A DNA stretch of 64,000 nucleotides, taken from an uncultured Alphaproteobacteria bacterium. GTDB taxonomy: Bacteria > Pseudomonadota > Alphaproteobacteria > HIMB59 > GCA-002718135. The notes below the pieces were generated by a model. The model was not told the DNA's origin. It did not search any database and was given only the letters and a program-made list of their open reading frames with translations. This document shows positions 58,645 through 64,000 of this stretch, piece by piece. Made by a program: the position numbers and the translations under genes. Every line of letters starts with the position of its first letter. Position 1 is the first letter of the stretch. Location of the stretch: NCBI GenBank assembly GCA_902597015.1, contig CACJWQ010000002.1:28383-92382 (forward strand), in the 5' to 3' direction.

Positions 58645-59225
58645 TGTAGAACTTCATTTATATGTTTGTTAGGAGGAAAAATAGGGTAGAATACTTTTTT
58701 AACAATATTTTTTTCCACAATAAGAGTTAATCTTTTAAAATAAATTTTGTTTTCAATTTTAAAATATGGCATTTTTAATGAATTGAGCAAAATATTTTCT
58801 GAATCACTTAAAACATCATAAGGAATTACCAATCTATCTGTCATTTCCTTAATATAATCTATTGTTTGAGTCGATATTCCTATAGGCAGTGCATTTAGTT
58901 TGATTAATTCTTCATAGTTATCTCTAAAATTACAGTTCTCCACAGTACACCCGATGGCTCCTGGAGTTTGATTCCAATTTTTAGGTAAACTTATATTTGG
59001 ATTACCTGTCATAGGATAAAAATATAAAATTAAACGAAAAGTGTCAGATCTTTTTAATTTTAATAGATTTCCCTGTTGATTTTTAAGAGAAATATCTGGC
59101 AAAAACTTTTTTAAAAGATGATCAGCTTTTCCATCATTTTGTGGTTTAGGAAATTTGCTATAATCCATACTAATTTGTCTTGTATTATCCAACTCTATAT
59201 ACCATAAGATAGTTTTATGACTCAA
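58626..59225 (-). CDS. Peroxiredoxin/redoxin-like protein (Bcp-like)
   Basis: PGAIGCTVENCNFRD resembles the Bcp/Prx active-site context. The start may instead be the Met at 59168 (MDYSKFPKPQ), which would remove the head-to-head overlap with speB. Confidence 0.6.
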   Translation of the reverse strand: MSHKTILWYIELDNTRQISMDYSKFPKPQNDGKADHLLKKFLPDISLKNQQGNLLKLKRSDTFRLILYFYPMTGNPNISLPKNWNQTPGAIGCTVENCNFRDNYEELIKLNALPIGISTQTIDYIKEMTDRLVIPYDVLSDSENILLNSLKMPYFKIENKIYFKRLTLIVEKNIVKKVFYPIFPPNKHINEVLQWLKEN

Positions 59226-60155
59226 ATTAAACCACTATCTAGTATGGAAACCCCTCGCTTTGCTGATGTTGCTACTTTTTTTCGTTTACCCGTTGTGAAA
59301 GATTTAAATAAATTAGACTACTGTATTACAGGTGTACCATGGGATGGAGGGACTACCAATAGACCTGGTGCTAGACATGGTCCTAGAGAAATCAGAAATG
59401 CATCATCACTTGTAAGACTTTATCACCCTATTTCACTTAAGAGCCCTTATGATAAATTTAATGTTGCTGATATTGGTGATTGTCCGGTAAATCCAGCGGA
59501 CTTATATGATAGTTTAGATAAAATAGAAAAATTTTACTCAAATATTTATAATTCCAAAACAATACCGTTATCAATTGGAGGTGATCATTTAATTAGCCTT
59601 CCAATTCTAAGAGGTATTGCGAAAGAAAAACCAATAGGTTTGTTTCAGTTTGATTCTCATTCTGATACTTGGGATACCTATTTTGGAGGATTTAAATATA
59701 CGCATGGTACACCATTTAGAAGAGCTATAGAAGAAAATCTGATAGATCCAAAAAAATATGTAATCCTTGGTCTTCGTGGAGCCTTATATGACCCTGAAGA
59801 TTTGAGTTGGGCTAGAGAACAAGGTGTAACTATAATTACTATAGATGATTATTATGAAATGGGATTTAATAAATGTATTGAAAAAATTTATGAAGTTCTA
59901 GCGACAACAGATACTTATTTTACATTTGATATAGATGGAATAGACCCAACTTTCGCTCCAGGCACTGGAACTCCTGAAGTTGGGGGTTTTAATGTAAGAG
60001 AGGCACAAACTATTATAAGAGCACTAAAGAAAATTAATTTTGTAGGTGGCGATGTAGTAGAAGTTTCTCCTCCATTTGATGTTAATAATATGACTTCATT
60101 AGTTGGCGCAACAATTGCATTTGAAATACTTTGTACTATGACAAAGGCAAATTAA
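59217..60155 (+). CDS. speB: Agmatinase/guanidino-acid hydrolase (arginase family)
   Basis: 312 aa. GVPWDGGTTNRPGARHGP, GGDHLISLP, FDSHSDT, FDIDGIDP and EVSPPFD metal-site motifs. Confidence 0.88.
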   Translation: MTQIKPLSSMETPRFADVATFFRLPVVKDLNKLDYCITGVPWDGGTTNRPGARHGPREIRNASSLVRLYHPISLKSPYDKFNVADIGDCPVNPADLYDSLDKIEKFYSNIYNSKTIPLSIGGDHLISLPILRGIAKEKPIGLFQFDSHSDTWDTYFGGFKYTHGTPFRRAIEENLIDPKKYVILGLRGALYDPEDLSWAREQGVTIITIDDYYEMGFNKCIEKIYEVLATTDTYFTFDIDGIDPTFAPGTGTPEVGGFNVREAQTIIRALKKINFVGGDVVEVSPPFDVNNMTSLVGATIAFEILCTMTKAN

Positions 60156-60712
60156 AATTCTTCAAAATTAGAAGTTCCAACACATAAAACATTTTGTAAA
60201 TCTAGATATTTATTAATATTATCTTTATTGACTCCACCTGTTGGTATGAATTTTATATTCCTTAAAATATTTTTAATAGATTGTAATTTTTTATCCTCTC
60301 CATTTAAATTAGCTGGGAAAAATTTAATTATTTCATAACCTTTTTTACTAAGATGTATAAATTCACTAACCGTCTCAGCTCCTGGAATGTAGGATGGATT
60401 TTTCATTTCTAATATTTCTTCAATAATACCTGGCGAAACATAAAAATTAAAATTATGATCTTGACCTCTAATTAAATCTTCTTTTGTTAAAACAGAGCCA
60501 AGACCAAATTTACAATCTGAAAAATATTTTTTTAATTCTACAGCAATAGAAAAAGATTCTTTTTCTCTTAATGTTATCTCTATATATTCAATTGATTTAT
60601 TTTGATTTAAATATTTTTTTAATCTTGCAATATCACTCTCTAGATTTGTTGTATTTAAAATTGGTAATAATTGTTGTTTATGAAGATCAGATTTTAATTG
60701 ATTATTTAACAT
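60152..60712 (-). CDS. eda: 2-dehydro-3-deoxyphosphogluconate (KDPG) aldolase family
   Basis: 186 aa. IEITLRE, IKFFPA (Schiff-base Lys context) and FIPTGGV motifs align to E. coli Eda. Confidence 0.83.
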   Translation of the reverse strand: MLNNQLKSDLHKQQLLPILNTTNLESDIARLKKYLNQNKSIEYIEITLREKESFSIAVELKKYFSDCKFGLGSVLTKEDLIRGQDHNFNFYVSPGIIEEILEMKNPSYIPGAETVSEFIHLSKKGYEIIKFFPANLNGEDKKLQSIKNILRNIKFIPTGGVNKDNINKYLDLQNVLCVGTSNFEEF

Positions 60713-61598
60713 CTACAATAGCGCCTTTTTTCATTACTATTTTAGAGCCTAAACTGCTACCAGCTTTTACTGCTAAAACTGGATCATTATTTACAATAAA
60801 ATTAGATAAATAAGCAGCATTAAATCCATCACCAGCACCTGAAGTATCAACCACTGTTTTAAGAAATTTATTCTTAAAAACATACTTATTTTTATTAAGC
60901 AATACATAAGTAAATTTGGCATTTTTTCTGAATATACTGTGTTTAATTTTGTATTTCCTTACTATTTGTTCATAAGACTTGATACCGTTTTTGTTTTTCC
61001 AATAACTCATATCTTCACCAGATAAAAAACATATGTCTACAAATTTAAGCACTGAGTGTAAGAAATTATTTAAATTTTTTTTATTCCATCGAGTTGGGCG
61101 TATATTAAAATCAAAAACAATTTTTATTTTTTTTCTTTTTAATAGTCTTAATAATTTAATAAAATTATTTAGTTTTGATATATGTATTATTGAAAGAGTT
61201 ATGCCAGAAAAATATATGTAATCAAAATTTTTAAGCTCTTTATATAAATTTAAAAAATCAATATTATTGAAGTAATGTTTTGCTGCACTTTCATCTCTCC
61301 AATAAAAAAATTGCTTTTCTCCATTATCTTTATTTTTTATTAAATATAATCCTAATTCAAATTGATTAATTTTTTTAATATATTTTGTTGAAATTTTTTT
61401 AGATTTGACAAAATCTAAAAGCGATCGATTGATTTCAGATTTTCCTATGGCACTTAAAAAAAAAGCGTTTAATTTTTTCTTATCAAGATAATTACAAAAA
61501 TTAAGTGTGTCACCAGCAAATGATTGATTGTATAAACTATTATTTATATTTGAAATCTCAATCATAGCTTCACCGATTGAGCATACATTTATTTTCAT
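60702..61598 (-). CDS. kdgK: 2-dehydro-3-deoxygluconokinase (PfkB family)
   Basis: 298 aa. IGEAMIEIS, FAGDTLN, GEKQFFYWRDESAAK and DTSGAGDGFNAAYL motifs. Confidence 0.83.
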   Translation of the reverse strand: MKINVCSIGEAMIEISNINNSLYNQSFAGDTLNFCNYLDKKKLNAFFLSAIGKSEINRSLLDFVKSKKISTKYIKKINQFELGLYLIKNKDNGEKQFFYWRDESAAKHYFNNIDFLNLYKELKNFDYIYFSGITLSIIHISKLNNFIKLLRLLKRKKIKIVFDFNIRPTRWNKKNLNNFLHSVLKFVDICFLSGEDMSYWKNKNGIKSYEQIVRKYKIKHSIFRKNAKFTYVLLNKNKYVFKNKFLKTVVDTSGAGDGFNAAYLSNFIVNNDPVLAVKAGSSLGSKIVMKKGAIVDVK

Positions 61599-61607
61599 GT
61601 TTAAATA

Positions 61608-61931
61608 TTAATCGTGGTGAAAAACCTCTTCCATTATTGACCACCATTCACCTTTTTTCCTATTTGGATCTGGAACTTGACATGGTCCACATAAACTCCA
61701 CCATTCTTGTACCTTAGGATTTGCTGCCATTAATTTGTTGTCTCTTTCAAGATCGTCCCCATGATATTCCATATAACCAAATAGTGTGTTTTTATGTAAA
61801 TAGATAGAAAAGTTTTTAAAATTAAGTTCTGTTAAATTATCTAAAATTTCTGGCCATACATTTGCATGTAATTTTTTGTATTCATCAATTTTATCTTCTC
61901 TAACACCAAGAGTCATTCCTAATCTAATCAT
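61608..61931 (-). CDS. rhaM: L-rhamnose mutarotase family protein (RhaM/DUF718)
   Basis: 107 aa. MIRLGMTLGVREDKIDEYKKLHANVWPEI and WWSLC...EVFH are typical of RhaM. Confidence 0.82.
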   Translation of the reverse strand: MIRLGMTLGVREDKIDEYKKLHANVWPEILDNLTELNFKNFSIYLHKNTLFGYMEYHGDDLERDNKLMAANPKVQEWWSLCGPCQVPDPNRKKGEWWSIMEEVFHHD

Positions 61932-61933
61932 AA

Positions 61934-63412
61934 TTAGAATTCCTCTTTTCTAGTAATTTTAAAACAGCTTGCATGATCAGATGGTCTATCATCCGGTCTT
62001 TCAATGTGAAGACCTTCATTAGAGAGCTTCCAATTCAATTTTGATTTACTTCCTAGTAATTCTACTGATAACACTTCGTCAGAAAAAAATCTTTTACAAC
62101 TTTTTATTAAAAATTCTTTGCTAGGCCATCCAAGTGTTGTTGCATATAGGATATTATTTTTAGTTGTGAATCTAATGTCCTCAGGAGTATGTGTTAATTT
62201 TTCTTTATTGTCTGAAAAGGGGCCAATAGCTTTCATCTCTGTGGGTCCCTCTCCAAACTGATCCCATGGCTCTGTATCAAAAATAGCTTCACCATTTACT
62301 TCTAACCATTTACCAATACCTTCAAGTATTGATTTATCTTCATCTGGAATTATTCCATTTGGTTTAGGTCCAATATTAAGAAGCATAAATCCATTTTTAC
62401 TTACATTATCAATTAGATATTGAACTAGTTCAGTTGTAGATTTATATTTTGAATCCTTCATGTAAGCCCAAGCGCTGCCGTCATGTACTGTTGTATCAGT
62501 AATCCATTGATAATGGGTTAGTTCAGATTTTCTTCCTAACTCAATATCTAAAACACCTGATCCAACTGGTAAATCATGCCATTCTCCATGATCTTTATAA
62601 GATATAACGACTTCTTTATTCCATTCAGCTTCTTTATTATAATAGTAACTAAGAAATTCTTTTCTGTATTTTTCATGAAGATATCTAATACCAAAATCAA
62701 ACCAAATATAATCTGGCTCATAATTATCGACGACTTCCTTTAAACGATTTAACCAACGGTCATGAAATGCTTTGCTTGGTTTGTCTTGTGGTTCATTACC
62801 ATTCTGATCCCAGTGCTTTGGATAGGAAGCATTAGTTGGAGGATTTTTAATGTTATGAGGTTCACCATAAAGGCCCGAAAATTCAGGATTGGAAGTATCA
62901 AAAGTTTTATTCCAATGAGGATAAAAATACCAATTTTCAGCATGATGCATGGCTACCATATATTTTAATCCTTTAGCCCTTATAGATTTTTCAAGCTCTC
63001 CTACAATATCTCTTTTTGGACCCATTTTAGCTGCACACCATTTTGTATCTGCACAATTCCACATCGGGAAGCCATCGTGGTGCTCAGCAACTGGACCCGC
63101 AAATTTAGCCCCAGATCTTGCATATAAATCTGCCCATTCTTCAGCATCAAAATGCTCTGCCTGAAACATTGGTATAAAATCTTTGTACCCAAATTTTGAA
63201 GGATGGCCAAAATTTTTACAATGATAGTCAAACTGTGGACTTGGTTCTCTATACATCCAATAAGGGTACCAAGTAACATTTGGTCCCGCAGCAGGAACTG
63301 AATAAGGACCCCAATGAGCATATATTCCAAACTTAGCCTTTTGAAACCAACTAGGTGTTTTGTGTTTCCTGATTGATTCCCACGTTGGTTCATAATTATT
63401 ACTTGTGTTCAT
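61934..63412 (-). CDS. Alpha-L-fucosidase (GH29), no signal peptide
   Basis: PTWESIRKHKTPSWFQKAKFGIYAHWGPYSVPA, plus HHDGF, YIWFD and NIGP segments. Start placed at MNTSNNYEP (AGGA upstream). The ORF track extends to 63439. Confidence 0.88.
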   Translation of the reverse strand: MNTSNNYEPTWESIRKHKTPSWFQKAKFGIYAHWGPYSVPAAGPNVTWYPYWMYREPSPQFDYHCKNFGHPSKFGYKDFIPMFQAEHFDAEEWADLYARSGAKFAGPVAEHHDGFPMWNCADTKWCAAKMGPKRDIVGELEKSIRAKGLKYMVAMHHAENWYFYPHWNKTFDTSNPEFSGLYGEPHNIKNPPTNASYPKHWDQNGNEPQDKPSKAFHDRWLNRLKEVVDNYEPDYIWFDFGIRYLHEKYRKEFLSYYYNKEAEWNKEVVISYKDHGEWHDLPVGSGVLDIELGRKSELTHYQWITDTTVHDGSAWAYMKDSKYKSTTELVQYLIDNVSKNGFMLLNIGPKPNGIIPDEDKSILEGIGKWLEVNGEAIFDTEPWDQFGEGPTEMKAIGPFSDNKEKLTHTPEDIRFTTKNNILYATTLGWPSKEFLIKSCKRFFSDEVLSVELLGSKSKLNWKLSNEGLHIERPDDRPSDHASCFKITRKEEF

Positions 63413-63419
63413 ATTTATC

Positions 63420-64000
63420 CTATCTTTTAAGAGCTCCATCTACGAGCCCGCTTTGAATTTGATTTCTAAATATTAGAAATACTATCATTGGTGGCATTGT
63501 GGCTAACATTAAAGCTGCAGTTTTTAATGTTGTCTCTGCAACATATCTTCCTTGGAAGGACATCATTCCAAGAGTAACTGTTCTGAGATCCATGTCATTT
63601 AAATAAATTAAAGGCCACATAAAATCATTAAATATCCAAACAAAGTAAATTATTGCAACTGTAACAACAGCAGGTTTTGCTAAAGGAACCATGATTTGAA
63701 AAAATATTACTAAGTCAGATGCCCCATCAATTTTTGCAGCTTCAATTAAATCTTTTGGTATTCCGAGAAAATAGGCTCTGAAAAAAAATATAGCAAAAGG
63801 GACCCAGGCTAAGTAAGTAAATATTACCGCAAAATATGTATTAACCAAACCAATTGTATTCATTATTTTAAAGGCAGGAATTAATATTACTTGTGGGGGT
63901 ATCATCATTCCTAAAAGAAAATAAAAGAAAATTAACATTCTTCCTCTAAATTCAAAATGTGCTAATCCATATCCAGCAGCACCACAAAAAGTCACAATTC
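63420..64000 (-). CDS. Carbohydrate ABC transporter permease (MalG/CUT1-type), N-terminus outside the window
   Basis: The C-terminal part contains the EAA loop IEAAKIDGASDLVIFFQIMVPLAKP. The ORF is open to the window edge. Confidence 0.85.
   Translation of the reverse strand, partial: IVTFCGAAGYGLAHFEFRGRMLIFFYFLLGMMIPPQVILIPAFKIMNTIGLVNTYFAVIFTYLAWVPFAIFFFRAYFLGIPKDLIEAAKIDGASDLVIFFQIMVPLAKPAVVTVAIIYFVWIFNDFMWPLIYLNDMDLRTVTLGMMSFQGRYVAETTLKTAALMLATMPPMIVFLIFRNQIQSGLVDGALKR

Follow-up and report, generated by a model that had tools for sequence, protein, structure and literature searches.

A minus-strand operon at the end of a 64,000-nucleotide stretch of DNA (the window) places a GH29 glycosidase between a sugar permease and genes for a mutarotase, a sugar-acid kinase, and an aldolase. 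The arrangement raises the question of which sugar the enzyme releases and whether the kinase and aldolase take part in its breakdown. Judging from gene content and similarity, we consider it probable that the operon is the fucoside-uptake front end of a published two-operon nonphosphorylative L-fucose pathway and that kdgK and eda are neighbors from a hexuronate route.

Host and Operon Structure

The host is a member of GTDB genus AG-337-I02 ("Ca. Indicimonas," AEGEAN-169, order HIMB59), outside Pelagibacterales; its genome is 67% complete, which sets the scope of all genome-wide searches below. The earlier note had regarded the organism as a streamlined small-molecule specialist in which a glycoside hydrolase locus is unexpected. 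That expectation falls away with the placement of the host in AEGEAN-169 and not in canonical, or true, SAR11; the sugar range of AEGEAN-169 has already been described as wider than that of SAR11 (PMC10308909). The closest loci come from single-cell genomes (SAGs), which the supplement of PMC11366302, in the part listing them, places under g__AG-337-I02.

Open reading frames and Pfam matches agreed with the gene order read from the letters, and the further genes predicted upstream of the window end were found on the continuation of the contig, 43 kb of which lie past that end. The features are as follows, L001 coordinates being window coordinates minus 58000.

59217..60155, plus strand: agmatinase gene (PF00491, 4.9e-90; TIGR01230 above its cut-off)
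60152..60712, minus strand: Eda-like class I aldolase (KDPG/KHG aldolase family), 186 aa, last gene of the operon (PF01081, 6.5e-30)
60702..61598, minus strand: KdgK-like PfkB sugar-acid kinase, 298 aa (PF00294, 5.9e-31)
61608..61931, minus strand: RhaM-family mutarotase, 107 aa (PF05336, 3.5e-32)
61934..63439, minus strand: GH29, 501 aa, or 492 aa if the start is Met10 (PF01120, 1.3e-96; Fucosidase_C, PF16757, 3e-10)
63420..64000, minus strand: second CUT1 permease, C-terminal 192 residues in the window (BPD_transp_1, PF00528, 7.6e-22)
L001 6250-7134: first permease, upstream past the window, beyond the second permease
L001 7187-8485: binding protein, upstream past the window (SBP_bac_1)
L001 9822-10523: GntR/FCD regulator, upstream past the window
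L001 15433-16728, minus strand: L-fuconate dehydratase FucD, enolase superfamily (1YEY/2HXT, 1e-118; ENOSF1, 4A35, 2e-123)
Contig C13, second operon: SDR (2AG5-like, 4e-86), adjoining FAH-family hydrolase, then LldD (FMN-dependent L-lactate dehydrogenase)

With the second permease gene extending to window-equivalent position 64253, the operon comprises seven genes: those for the binding protein, two CUT1 permeases, GH29, RhaM-like mutarotase, KdgK-like kinase, and Eda-like aldolase. The genes are tightly packed, with gaps of at most 9 nt. The eda and kdgK genes overlap by 11 nt, kdgK and rhaM are separated by 9 nt and rhaM and GH29 by 2 nt, and GH29 overlaps the permease by 20 nt or, if it starts at Met10, lies 7 nt from it. 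The agmatinase gene is convergent with eda, their 3' ends overlapping by 4 nt. A hairpin, which may attenuate transcription, follows the binding-protein gene. Scanning the operon for promoters and terminators told us nothing further, as it gave 43 promoter-like sites where 52 were expected.

Importer and Cellular Location of GH29

Of the genes that the earlier note proposed to look for beyond position 64000, the binding protein, the second permease, a regulator, and fuconate enzymes are all there, while the ATPase is absent from the operon. The importer parts that are present, an SBP_bac_1 protein with a signal peptide and two BPD_transp_1 permeases, are of the CUT1 type, and the best NCBIfam matches of the second permease are UgpE, GlcU, and MalG. 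The nearest solved relatives of the binding protein bind xylo- and chito-oligosaccharides. Within the operon we found no cognate MalK/MsiK-type ATPase; genes for five MalK-type ATPases lie at other places in the genome, one of them on the same contig, and ATPase sharing is common among CUT1 systems.

The claim that GH29 has no signal peptide was borne out, as its N terminus contains no hydrophobic stretch: the maximum 12-residue Kyte–Doolittle value is –0.08, compared with 2.48 for the binding protein of the same operon. The same measure gave 0.1–0.86 in five GH29 alleles of the genus and two Chloroflexota homologues. As the operon begins with a signal-peptide-bearing, oligosaccharide-type binding protein and its GH29 carries no such peptide, the proposed import followed by intracellular cleavage is plausible.

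Predicted Fucose Catabolic Enzymes outside the Window

The link from the released deoxy-sugar to further catabolism, which the earlier note had left unresolved, is provided by genes beyond the window. A dehydrogenase, a lactonase, and a dehydratase are encoded ~9–12 kb upstream of GH29 on the same contig, and the remaining enzymes on contig C13; the pathway looks incomplete only because the window stops short of them. The three upstream genes, for an aldo-keto reductase (AKR) that is the candidate sugar dehydrogenase, a putative fuconolactonase, and FucD, sit behind a monosaccharide-type ABC system. The lactonase, a cog3618 amidohydrolase, has L-fucono-1,5-lactonase NF052480 as its only NCBIfam match (224 bits, under the cut-off of 400), and 4DLF/4DNM, which we take to be the L-fucono-1,5-lactonase BmulJ_04915, is its only solved match at E <= 1e-10 (E = 1e-36). 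The AKR had no match among equivalog models. Among solved structures it comes nearest to L-galactose dehydrogenases (1e-32 to 1e-23), which are closer to it than any characterized fucose dehydrogenase.

In the second operon, the FAH-family protein scored 392 bits on the 2,4-didehydro-3-deoxy-L-rhamnonate hydrolase model, under the cut-off of 500, and LldD likewise fell under its curated cut-off. The gene order agrees with that of the second operon in the published pathway, as the passages of PMC11366302 on it describe. The below-cut-off scores of these two proteins, the lactonase, KdgK, and Eda may be due to the proteins being AT-rich and divergent. With the predicted fucose enzymes upstream and on C13, neither KdgK nor Eda would be needed for a full nonphosphorylative L-fucose route.

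On our main explanation, the secreted binding protein and CUT1 permeases would import small fucosides or fuco-oligosaccharides, presumably driven by a MalK-type ATPase encoded elsewhere, and the cytoplasmic retaining GH29, whose family is evident and whose substrate is putative, would free alpha-L-fucose. The mutarotase would provide the beta anomer for the AKR dehydrogenase, and the lactonase and L-fuconate dehydratase would yield 2-keto-3-deoxy-L-fuconate, which the C13 SDR, FAH-family hydrolase, and FMN-dependent L-lactate dehydrogenase may turn into pyruvate. KdgK and Eda would serve as terminal steps of the mannonate/hexuronate route of uxuA and a UxuB-like gene.

Mutarotase, KdgK, and Eda in a Variable Sugar Island

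The mutarotase scored 48.7 bits on the L-rhamnose mutarotase (RhaM/YiiL) equivalog TIGR02625, under the cut-off of 99.6. Judged by gene context, its sugar is probably L-fucose rather than L-rhamnose; in genomes without GH29, rhaM directly follows the lactonase gene, and in the others it follows GH29. The best NCBIfam match of the kinase, leading the others by a wide margin, is 2-dehydro-3-deoxygluconokinase NF052444 (195 bits, under the cut-off of 400), and its PfkB membership is clear. The aldolase scored 123 bits on TIGR01182 (cut-off 156) and is the only PF01081 match in the 67%-complete genome. Aligned to E. coli Eda 1EUA and to 1MXS, it keeps EITLR, IKFFPA, and PTGG...S, which we take to be the Glu/Arg motif, the Schiff-base Lys motif, and the phosphate-binding loop of Eda, and its short 186-aa form is kept across the genus.

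The agmatinase, 79–98% identical and at the same position in every arrangement type of the genus, is the conserved right-hand anchor of a variable sugar island, and uxuA and the UxuB-like gene lie at the opposite island edge from kdgK-eda. The simplest content at the same site was seen in G002, with a Mannitol_dh gene, uxuA, kdgK, eda, and agmatinase and no fucose genes. Three genomes (G008, G067, and G056) add a CUT2 ABC system, AKR, FucD, the lactonase, and rhaM, still without GH29, which in most GH29-positive genomes is added between the lactonase gene and rhaM. This genome and four SAG loci (L015, L016, L018, and L019) additionally carry a CUT1-cassette block ending in GntR, PhyH, a small ORF, the binding protein, and two permeases; in the SAG loci, which have the whole arrangement, the flanks are 88–99% identical. 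Two further cassette members, the PhyH-like dioxygenase and the 102-aa ORF, had PDB matches at 3e-3 only and gave unnamed clusters only in the Atlas search.

These arrangements suggest that the fucose modules were inserted upstream of kdgK-eda, the direction, insertion or deletion, being our reading of the pattern; kdgK-eda would then lie downstream of GH29 because the modules entered between uxuA and kdgK. The synteny, in which a genome lacking fucose genes has kdgK-eda adjoining uxuA and a UxuB-like gene, likewise suggests that KdgK and Eda form the end of the mannonate/hexuronate route and do not belong to fucose catabolism. Whether or not a genome has GH29, the orthologues of kdgK adjoin eda and agmatinase. 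Since the 9-nt gap between rhaM and kdgK leaves no room for a separate promoter, kdgK-eda are probably cotranscribed with GH29, and this cotranscription could reflect a real functional link. Orthologues of kdgK of at least 66% identity occur almost solely in GH29-positive genomes; this co-occurrence is weak evidence, because those genomes are close kin.

Several cassette arrangements and deeply divergent GH29 alleles mark the locus as a hot spot of recombination. The allele in this genome is deep branching, 74–78% identical to all other alleles of the genus, although its flanks are 92–99% identical to those of congeners. It is 98% identical to a protein cluster of 134 members, and the nearest relatives outside the genus are from Chloroflexota. 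Against our main explanation, we count that most congeners have a cytoplasmic GH29 with no adjacent oligosaccharide importer.

GH29 Specificity and Alternative Explanations

The catalytic domain scored 324.5 bits on PF01120 (cut-off 25.2) and the C-terminal beta-sandwich domain 41 bits on PF16757 (cut-off 25.6), with no match among NCBIfam models. Residues D248, E300, H42, W43, E119, H120, H121, D315, and W324 are invariant among 98 homologues. The nucleophile Asp is conserved, D248 (IWFDF) aligning with the Asp of BpGH29 (IWFDW), and E300 (DIELG), aligned with DIERG of BpGH29, is the candidate general acid/base Glu at the subfamily-A position. The top solved matches, TmaFuc, FgFCO1, and BpGH29, all belong to subfamily A. 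On these sequence features, the product is a cytoplasmic, subfamily-A-like GH29 predicted to be an exo-alpha-L-fucosidase, with a presumed fucoside substrate.

The best solved relative is at the same time the starting point for a different, unlikely reading, in which GH29 is an alpha-L-galactosidase or a dual L-fucoside/L-galactoside enzyme and KdgK and Eda are truly coupled to it: AKR, lactonase, and FucD-type enzymes would oxidize L-galactose, and the 6-hydroxylated product would be converted to KDG, phosphorylated, and cleaved. BpGH29, an exo-alpha-L-galactosidase (7LJJ/7SNK), is by far the nearest solved structure (1e-111, 377 bits over residues 24–498), the solved relatives nearest to the AKR are L-galactose dehydrogenases, and kdgK-eda follow closely on GH29 and rhaM and are found mostly where GH29 is. 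Substrates derived from L-galactose are also accepted by FucD and cog3618 lactonases, and KdgK and Eda are the last enzymes of the bacterial L-galactose routes known. Asp327 of BpGH29 has been reported to hold O6 (PMC9774334). We dropped this O6-binding Asp as a marker of L-galactosidases, however, since its equivalent is also found in the genuine fucosidase FgFCO1 (4NI3) and thus does not discriminate them. The sequence cluster of BpGH29 is not isofunctional and includes fucosidases (PMC11189522), the minimal operon found in most congeners conserves neither an L-galactonate 5-dehydrogenase nor L-KDGal-to-KDG enzymes, and G002 has kdgK-eda beside uxuA without any of the genes concerned.

That KdgK and Eda stand in for the hydrolase and the dehydrogenase acting on KDF, so that fucose catabolism has a new lower branch of the phosphorylative kind, is highly improbable. 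They share the operon, and the window holds neither a KDF dehydrogenase nor a hydrolase, but 2-keto-3-deoxy-L-fuconate is a 6-deoxy acid and has no hydroxyl of the kind phosphorylated by KdgK-type kinases. Because C6 of such an acid bears no hydroxyl for a kinase to use, KdgK and Eda would not act on fucose intermediates. The phosphate-binding loop of Eda is kept, and the canonical SDR, FAH, and LldD operon exists on C13; the proposal is thus already contradicted. An assembly chimera or contaminant contig, which the earlier note had named as grounds for abandoning its reading, is scarcely credible. The G+C content of 0.30–0.37 in GH29 and the transporter genes against 0.23 in kdgK-eda, and a GH29 gene diverging from congeners far more than its flanks, would fit such an origin. 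Contradicting it, the two permease genes, this GH29 allele, and rhaM recur on a separately assembled metagenome contig (L103, 3355 bp) with 98.9% nucleotide identity across both gene junctions. The whole arrangement in four SAG loci and the size of the allele's protein cluster also argue against it, and the contig, 135 kb long and uniform in composition, extends ~47 kb past the locus even on its shorter side.

Comparison with Known Systems

Infant-gut bifidobacteria import fucosyllactose through ABC transporters and cleave it intracellularly with GH29 or GH95. Judged from the genes, the two systems would share one logic, in which a CUT1 importer with its binding protein takes up the substrate and an exo-fucosidase in the cytoplasm cleaves it, without extracellular hydrolysis; the phylum, the habitat, and presumably the ligand differ, and a search of the 67%-complete genome gave no beta-galactosidase of family GH2 or GH42. 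The L-fucose pathway of Xanthomonas campestris and Burkholderia multivorans, to which FucD (1e-118) and the lactonase (1e-36) match, has the same step order and ends in pyruvate and L-lactate. In contrast to that pathway, the dehydrogenase here is an aldo-keto reductase and not an SDR, the genes are split between two loci, and a glycoside hydrolase and an oligosaccharide importer are attached.

BpGH29, the closest solved and characterized relative (exo-alpha-1,3-L-galactosidase of the Bacteroides plebeius porphyran locus; 7LJJ, 7LK7, and 7SNK), has in common with this GH29 the nucleophile Asp, the invariant Glu, and an Asp and Trp around C6/O6. The BpGH29 chain aligns from residue 50–52, leaving an N-terminal extension. 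It is presumably the exported enzyme of a SusCD-type locus, where it works after a 6-O-sulfatase on porphyran oligosaccharides. The GH29 studied here is predicted to be cytoplasmic, is ~100 residues shorter, and is set among fucose catabolic genes. Contig C13 also has an operon with a CUT1 system and two cytoplasmic sulfatases; a formylglycine-generating enzyme for them was not found in the 67%-complete genome. A speculative and rather improbable extension is that, through the island and this sulfatase operon, sulfated L-fucose/L-galactose oligosaccharides are imported whole and then desulfated and cleaved in the cytoplasm, with a dual-specific GH29 and with kdgK-eda taking the L-galactose branch. 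If true, a streamlined oligotroph would practice "selfish" use of algal glycans in a cytoplasmic form that does without SusCD.

The fucose pathway of the genus is already known: GH29 and a two-operon nonphosphorylating L-fucose pathway were published for "Ca. Indicimonas" (PMC11366302, ISME J 2024, wrae155), and the passages on substrate use conclude that free or small fucose-containing substrates, not polymeric fucoidan, are used. As described there, the AKR, mandelate-racemase-type dehydratase, amidohydrolase, mutarotase, and GH29 behind ABC transporter genes are alike, as are the second operon (SDR, FAH hydrolase, and L-lactate dehydrogenase) and the single GH29 per genome. Relative to that description, this genome shows a less common arrangement, its CUT1 cassette directly before GH29 separating GH29 from the catabolic genes, and a GH29 allele as distant from the others of the genus as reported above. 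The pathway passages of that paper make no mention of kdgK-eda, the CUT1 cassette, or the affinity to Chloroflexota. Added here are the CUT1-cassette variant, the divergent allele, the explanation of the gap at the window end, and the reading of kdgK-eda as probably neighbors by insertion.

That an abundant, streamlined open-ocean bacterium appears able to take up and use fucose-containing compounds bears on the question of which organisms consume algal fucans in the oligotrophic gyres, a point on fucose use already made in 2024 for the same genus in the passages of PMC11366302 concerned.

The operon and its upstream continuation

The window (C2:28383-92382) was cut from a 135-kb contig of a 1.2-Mb assembly (58 contigs, 67% complete), and the operon at its end continues on that contig. 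We numbered the source locus, L001, as window coordinate minus 58000 and annotated the following genes.

Window 60152-64000, minus strand: Eda-like aldolase, KdgK-like PfkB kinase, RhaM-family mutarotase, GH29 with a C-terminal domain, CUT1-type permease (C-terminal 192 residues)
Upstream of the truncated permease: first CUT1 permease and 432-aa SBP_bac_1 protein
L001 8555-9816, divergent from the binding-protein gene: 102-aa ORF without a family and PhyH-like Fe/2-oxoglutarate dioxygenase
L001 10636-12452: SDR and BKACE enzyme
L001 12791-13801: fatty-acid-hydroxylase-family membrane protein
L001 13825-14586: 3-hydroxybutyrate-dehydrogenase-like SDR, above the PRK12429 cut-off
Upstream of the window: GntR/FCD regulator
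Behind a CUT2 (ribose-type) ABC system: Amidohydro_2 lactonase, enolase-superfamily dehydratase, aldo-keto reductase (AKR)
Further upstream: uxuA (divergent), Ldh_2-family gene, Mannitol_dh-family (UxuB/UxaB-like) gene

The earlier note's gene identities, minus-strand order and gaps of at most 9 nt agree with our ORFs and family hits, and the further genes it expected beyond 64000 are seen on the contig (permease, binding protein, GntR/FCD regulator and fucose enzymes). Spacing among the five genes ranges from an 11-nt overlap to a 9-nt gap, making co-transcription of kdgK-eda with GH29 likely. The GH29 had been read as lacking a signal peptide, and its N-terminus, like those of the other checked clade members, indeed has no hydrophobic segment, in contrast to the operon's binding protein, whose signal peptide is clear; the solved structures closest to this protein are of proteins that bind xylo- and chito-oligosaccharides. 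Between the binding-protein and first permease genes, which are 52 nt apart, a perfect 10-bp palindromic hairpin with six G–C pairs, GAAAGGACGC TTA GCGTCCTTTC, occupies L001 7145-7167 (window-equivalent 65145-65167). Such a hairpin is unusual for a 29% G+C genome; it probably acts as an attenuator within the operon or stabilizes the mRNA, giving more binding protein relative to permease.

The 102-aa ORF and the PhyH-like gene accompany the CUT1–GH29 cassette in all contexts seen (L015-L019, L104-L111), and it is conceivable that the pair modifies the imported sugar. The SDR and BKACE genes (the latter exceeding the cut-off of the 3-oxoadipate:acetyl-CoA acetyltransferase model with 428 bits) are missing from otherwise collinear single-cell genome (SAG) loci and look like a 1.8-kb private insertion in the source genome. 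The 3-hydroxybutyrate dehydrogenase and fatty-acid-hydroxylase-like genes lie inside the island, with the lactonase on one side and the CUT1 cassette on the other, and have no evident link to fucose.

Host and fucose catabolism

Among public genomes, the closest GH29 loci come from GORG SAGs, several of which the supplement of PMC11366302 places in o__HIMB59; f__GCA-002718135; g__AG-337-I02, "Ca. Indicimonas." As the flanking DNA is 88 to 99% identical to the SAG loci, the host is AEGEAN-169 (formerly SAR11 subclade V), a group that PMC10308909 sets apart from SAR11 in metabolism, particularly in its use of sugars. The earlier surprise at a GH29 in a streamlined oligotroph came from a mistaken assumption about its taxonomy. 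According to PMC11366302, about 20% of Ca. Indicimonas genomes have a single GH29, as a member of a conserved non-phosphorylating fucose operon with a second operon besides, and transcripts of the system were detected in the South Pacific Gyre. The fucose system is therefore already published for this genus. In our search of species-representative genomes, 36 of 116 family members had a GH29 above the cut-off, every one in this genus.

The dehydratase aligns with solved L-fuconate dehydratases at 1e-118, the lactonase matches both a structure and a model of L-fucono-1,5-lactonase, and L-galactose dehydrogenases are the nearest relatives of the AKR. The genome's sole FAH-family gene is on another contig, C13, with a DHRS6-like SDR on one side and an L-lactate dehydrogenase of the FMN-dependent type on the other, the second operon of the published pathway. 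With that operon present, the predicted route from fucose to pyruvate and L-lactate is complete without KdgK and Eda. The mechanism proposed in the earlier note was largely right, and the gap it left between fucose and KdgK/Eda was an effect of the window end: lactonase, dehydratase and reductase lie upstream and the remaining steps on C13.

Arrangements at the chromosomal site

We compared how genomes of the genus are arranged at this chromosomal site.

G002: Mannitol_dh gene, uxuA, kdgK, eda, agmatinase; fucose genes absent
G008, G067, G056: CUT2 system, AKR, L-fuconate dehydratase, lactonase and rhaM between uxuA and kdgK; GH29 absent
Commonest GH29-positive form: GH29 added between lactonase and rhaM
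Source genome and four SAG loci: extra 9- to 11-kb block between lactonase and GH29, ending in the CUT1 cassette
G092 (G092:C4, L099 10873-11391): between lactonase and GH29, only a permease remnant, 173 residues of the second CUT1 permease
Another form: CUT1 cassette, GH29, rhaM, kdgK, eda; catabolic genes not nearby
Another form: GH29 and an AKR paralogue alone
GH29-less form, L137 9409-14448 (G064) and L138 (G007): agmatinase, eda, kdgK, AKR paralogue

The G092 remnant is direct evidence that the CUT1 cassette can be deleted. In L137, the next gene upstream of the AKR paralogue is divergently transcribed and encodes a sulfatase without a signal peptide. The product of UxuA is KDG, and the 6-deoxy acid derived from fucose offers no hydroxyl at C6 for phosphorylation. 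Given this chemistry, the series of arrangements and the phosphate-binding loop retained in Eda, kdgK-eda are most economically read as the end of a mannonate/hexuronate route, left downstream by successive insertions, with the direction of events inferred.

The earlier note had named an assembly chimera or contaminant contig as an outcome that would refute the locus. An independent metagenome contig, L103, matches it over 3355 bp at 98.9% identity, from the two permeases through the same GH29 allele to rhaM, reproducing both GH29 junctions, and we reject misassembly. The composition step seen earlier is real and modest: G+C is 0.30 to 0.37 (GC3 0.18 to 0.22) in GH29, rhaM, the permeases and the binding-protein gene against 0.23 (GC3 0.08 to 0.15) in kdgK and eda, which fits a mosaic origin.

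Origin and specificity of the GH29

In a midpoint-rooted tree of 98 homologues, the genus GH29 sequences form one clade (support 100), sister to a marine Anaerolineae/Phototrophicaceae (Chloroflexota) clade whose genes have a homologous lactonase as neighbor, joined at some of the loci by an AKR. The sister relationship and shared neighbors point to a single transfer between Chloroflexota and Pseudomonadota, in either direction. The window's allele (protein cluster of 134 members) and cluster P0002 branch ahead of all other genus alleles, to which the window's allele is 74 to 78% identical. Against the nearest SAGs (L016, L019), nucleotide identity falls from 92 to 99% on both flanks to 68 to 86% across the GH29 ORF (L001 3934-5439, window 61934-63439). 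Divergence so confined to one gene suggests either that recombination replaced the allele or that distinct alleles have long been maintained.

Asp248, the catalytic residue, does not vary among the 98 homologues, nor do other residues of the pocket, and all strong solved matches belong to subfamily A. The best of these (1e-111), BpGH29, is an exo-alpha-L-galactosidase of a porphyran locus. The O6-binding residue reported for BpGH29 is not confined to L-galactosidases; the fucosidase FgFCO1 has it as well, and the BpGH29 sequence cluster contains mixed activities, so specificity is not readable from sequence, and an L-galactosidase or dual-activity enzyme is a minority possibility.

GH29 is the operon's only exo-glycosidase, and GH2 and GH42 were not found in the 67%-complete genome; the simplest ligands would therefore be those that GH29 could reduce to fucose unaided, small fucosides or homo-fuco-oligosaccharides. 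C13 also carries, about 17 kb from the second fucose operon, another CUT1 importer (510-aa binding protein and two permeases) followed by two sulfatases (L136 2-5925). Both sulfatases lack a signal peptide, and the first has a CTPSR formylglycine motif; an FGE gene was not found in the 67%-complete genome. Orthologues of the first, 96 to 100% identical, occur in 36 of 105 genomes of the genus: in 27 of the 36 with GH29 and in 9 of the 69 that lack it; as the genomes are close kin, this co-occurrence is only a lead towards the use of sulfated oligosaccharides.

The locus leaves two points that can be tested at the bench: the specificity of the GH29 and any role of kdgK-eda alongside it.
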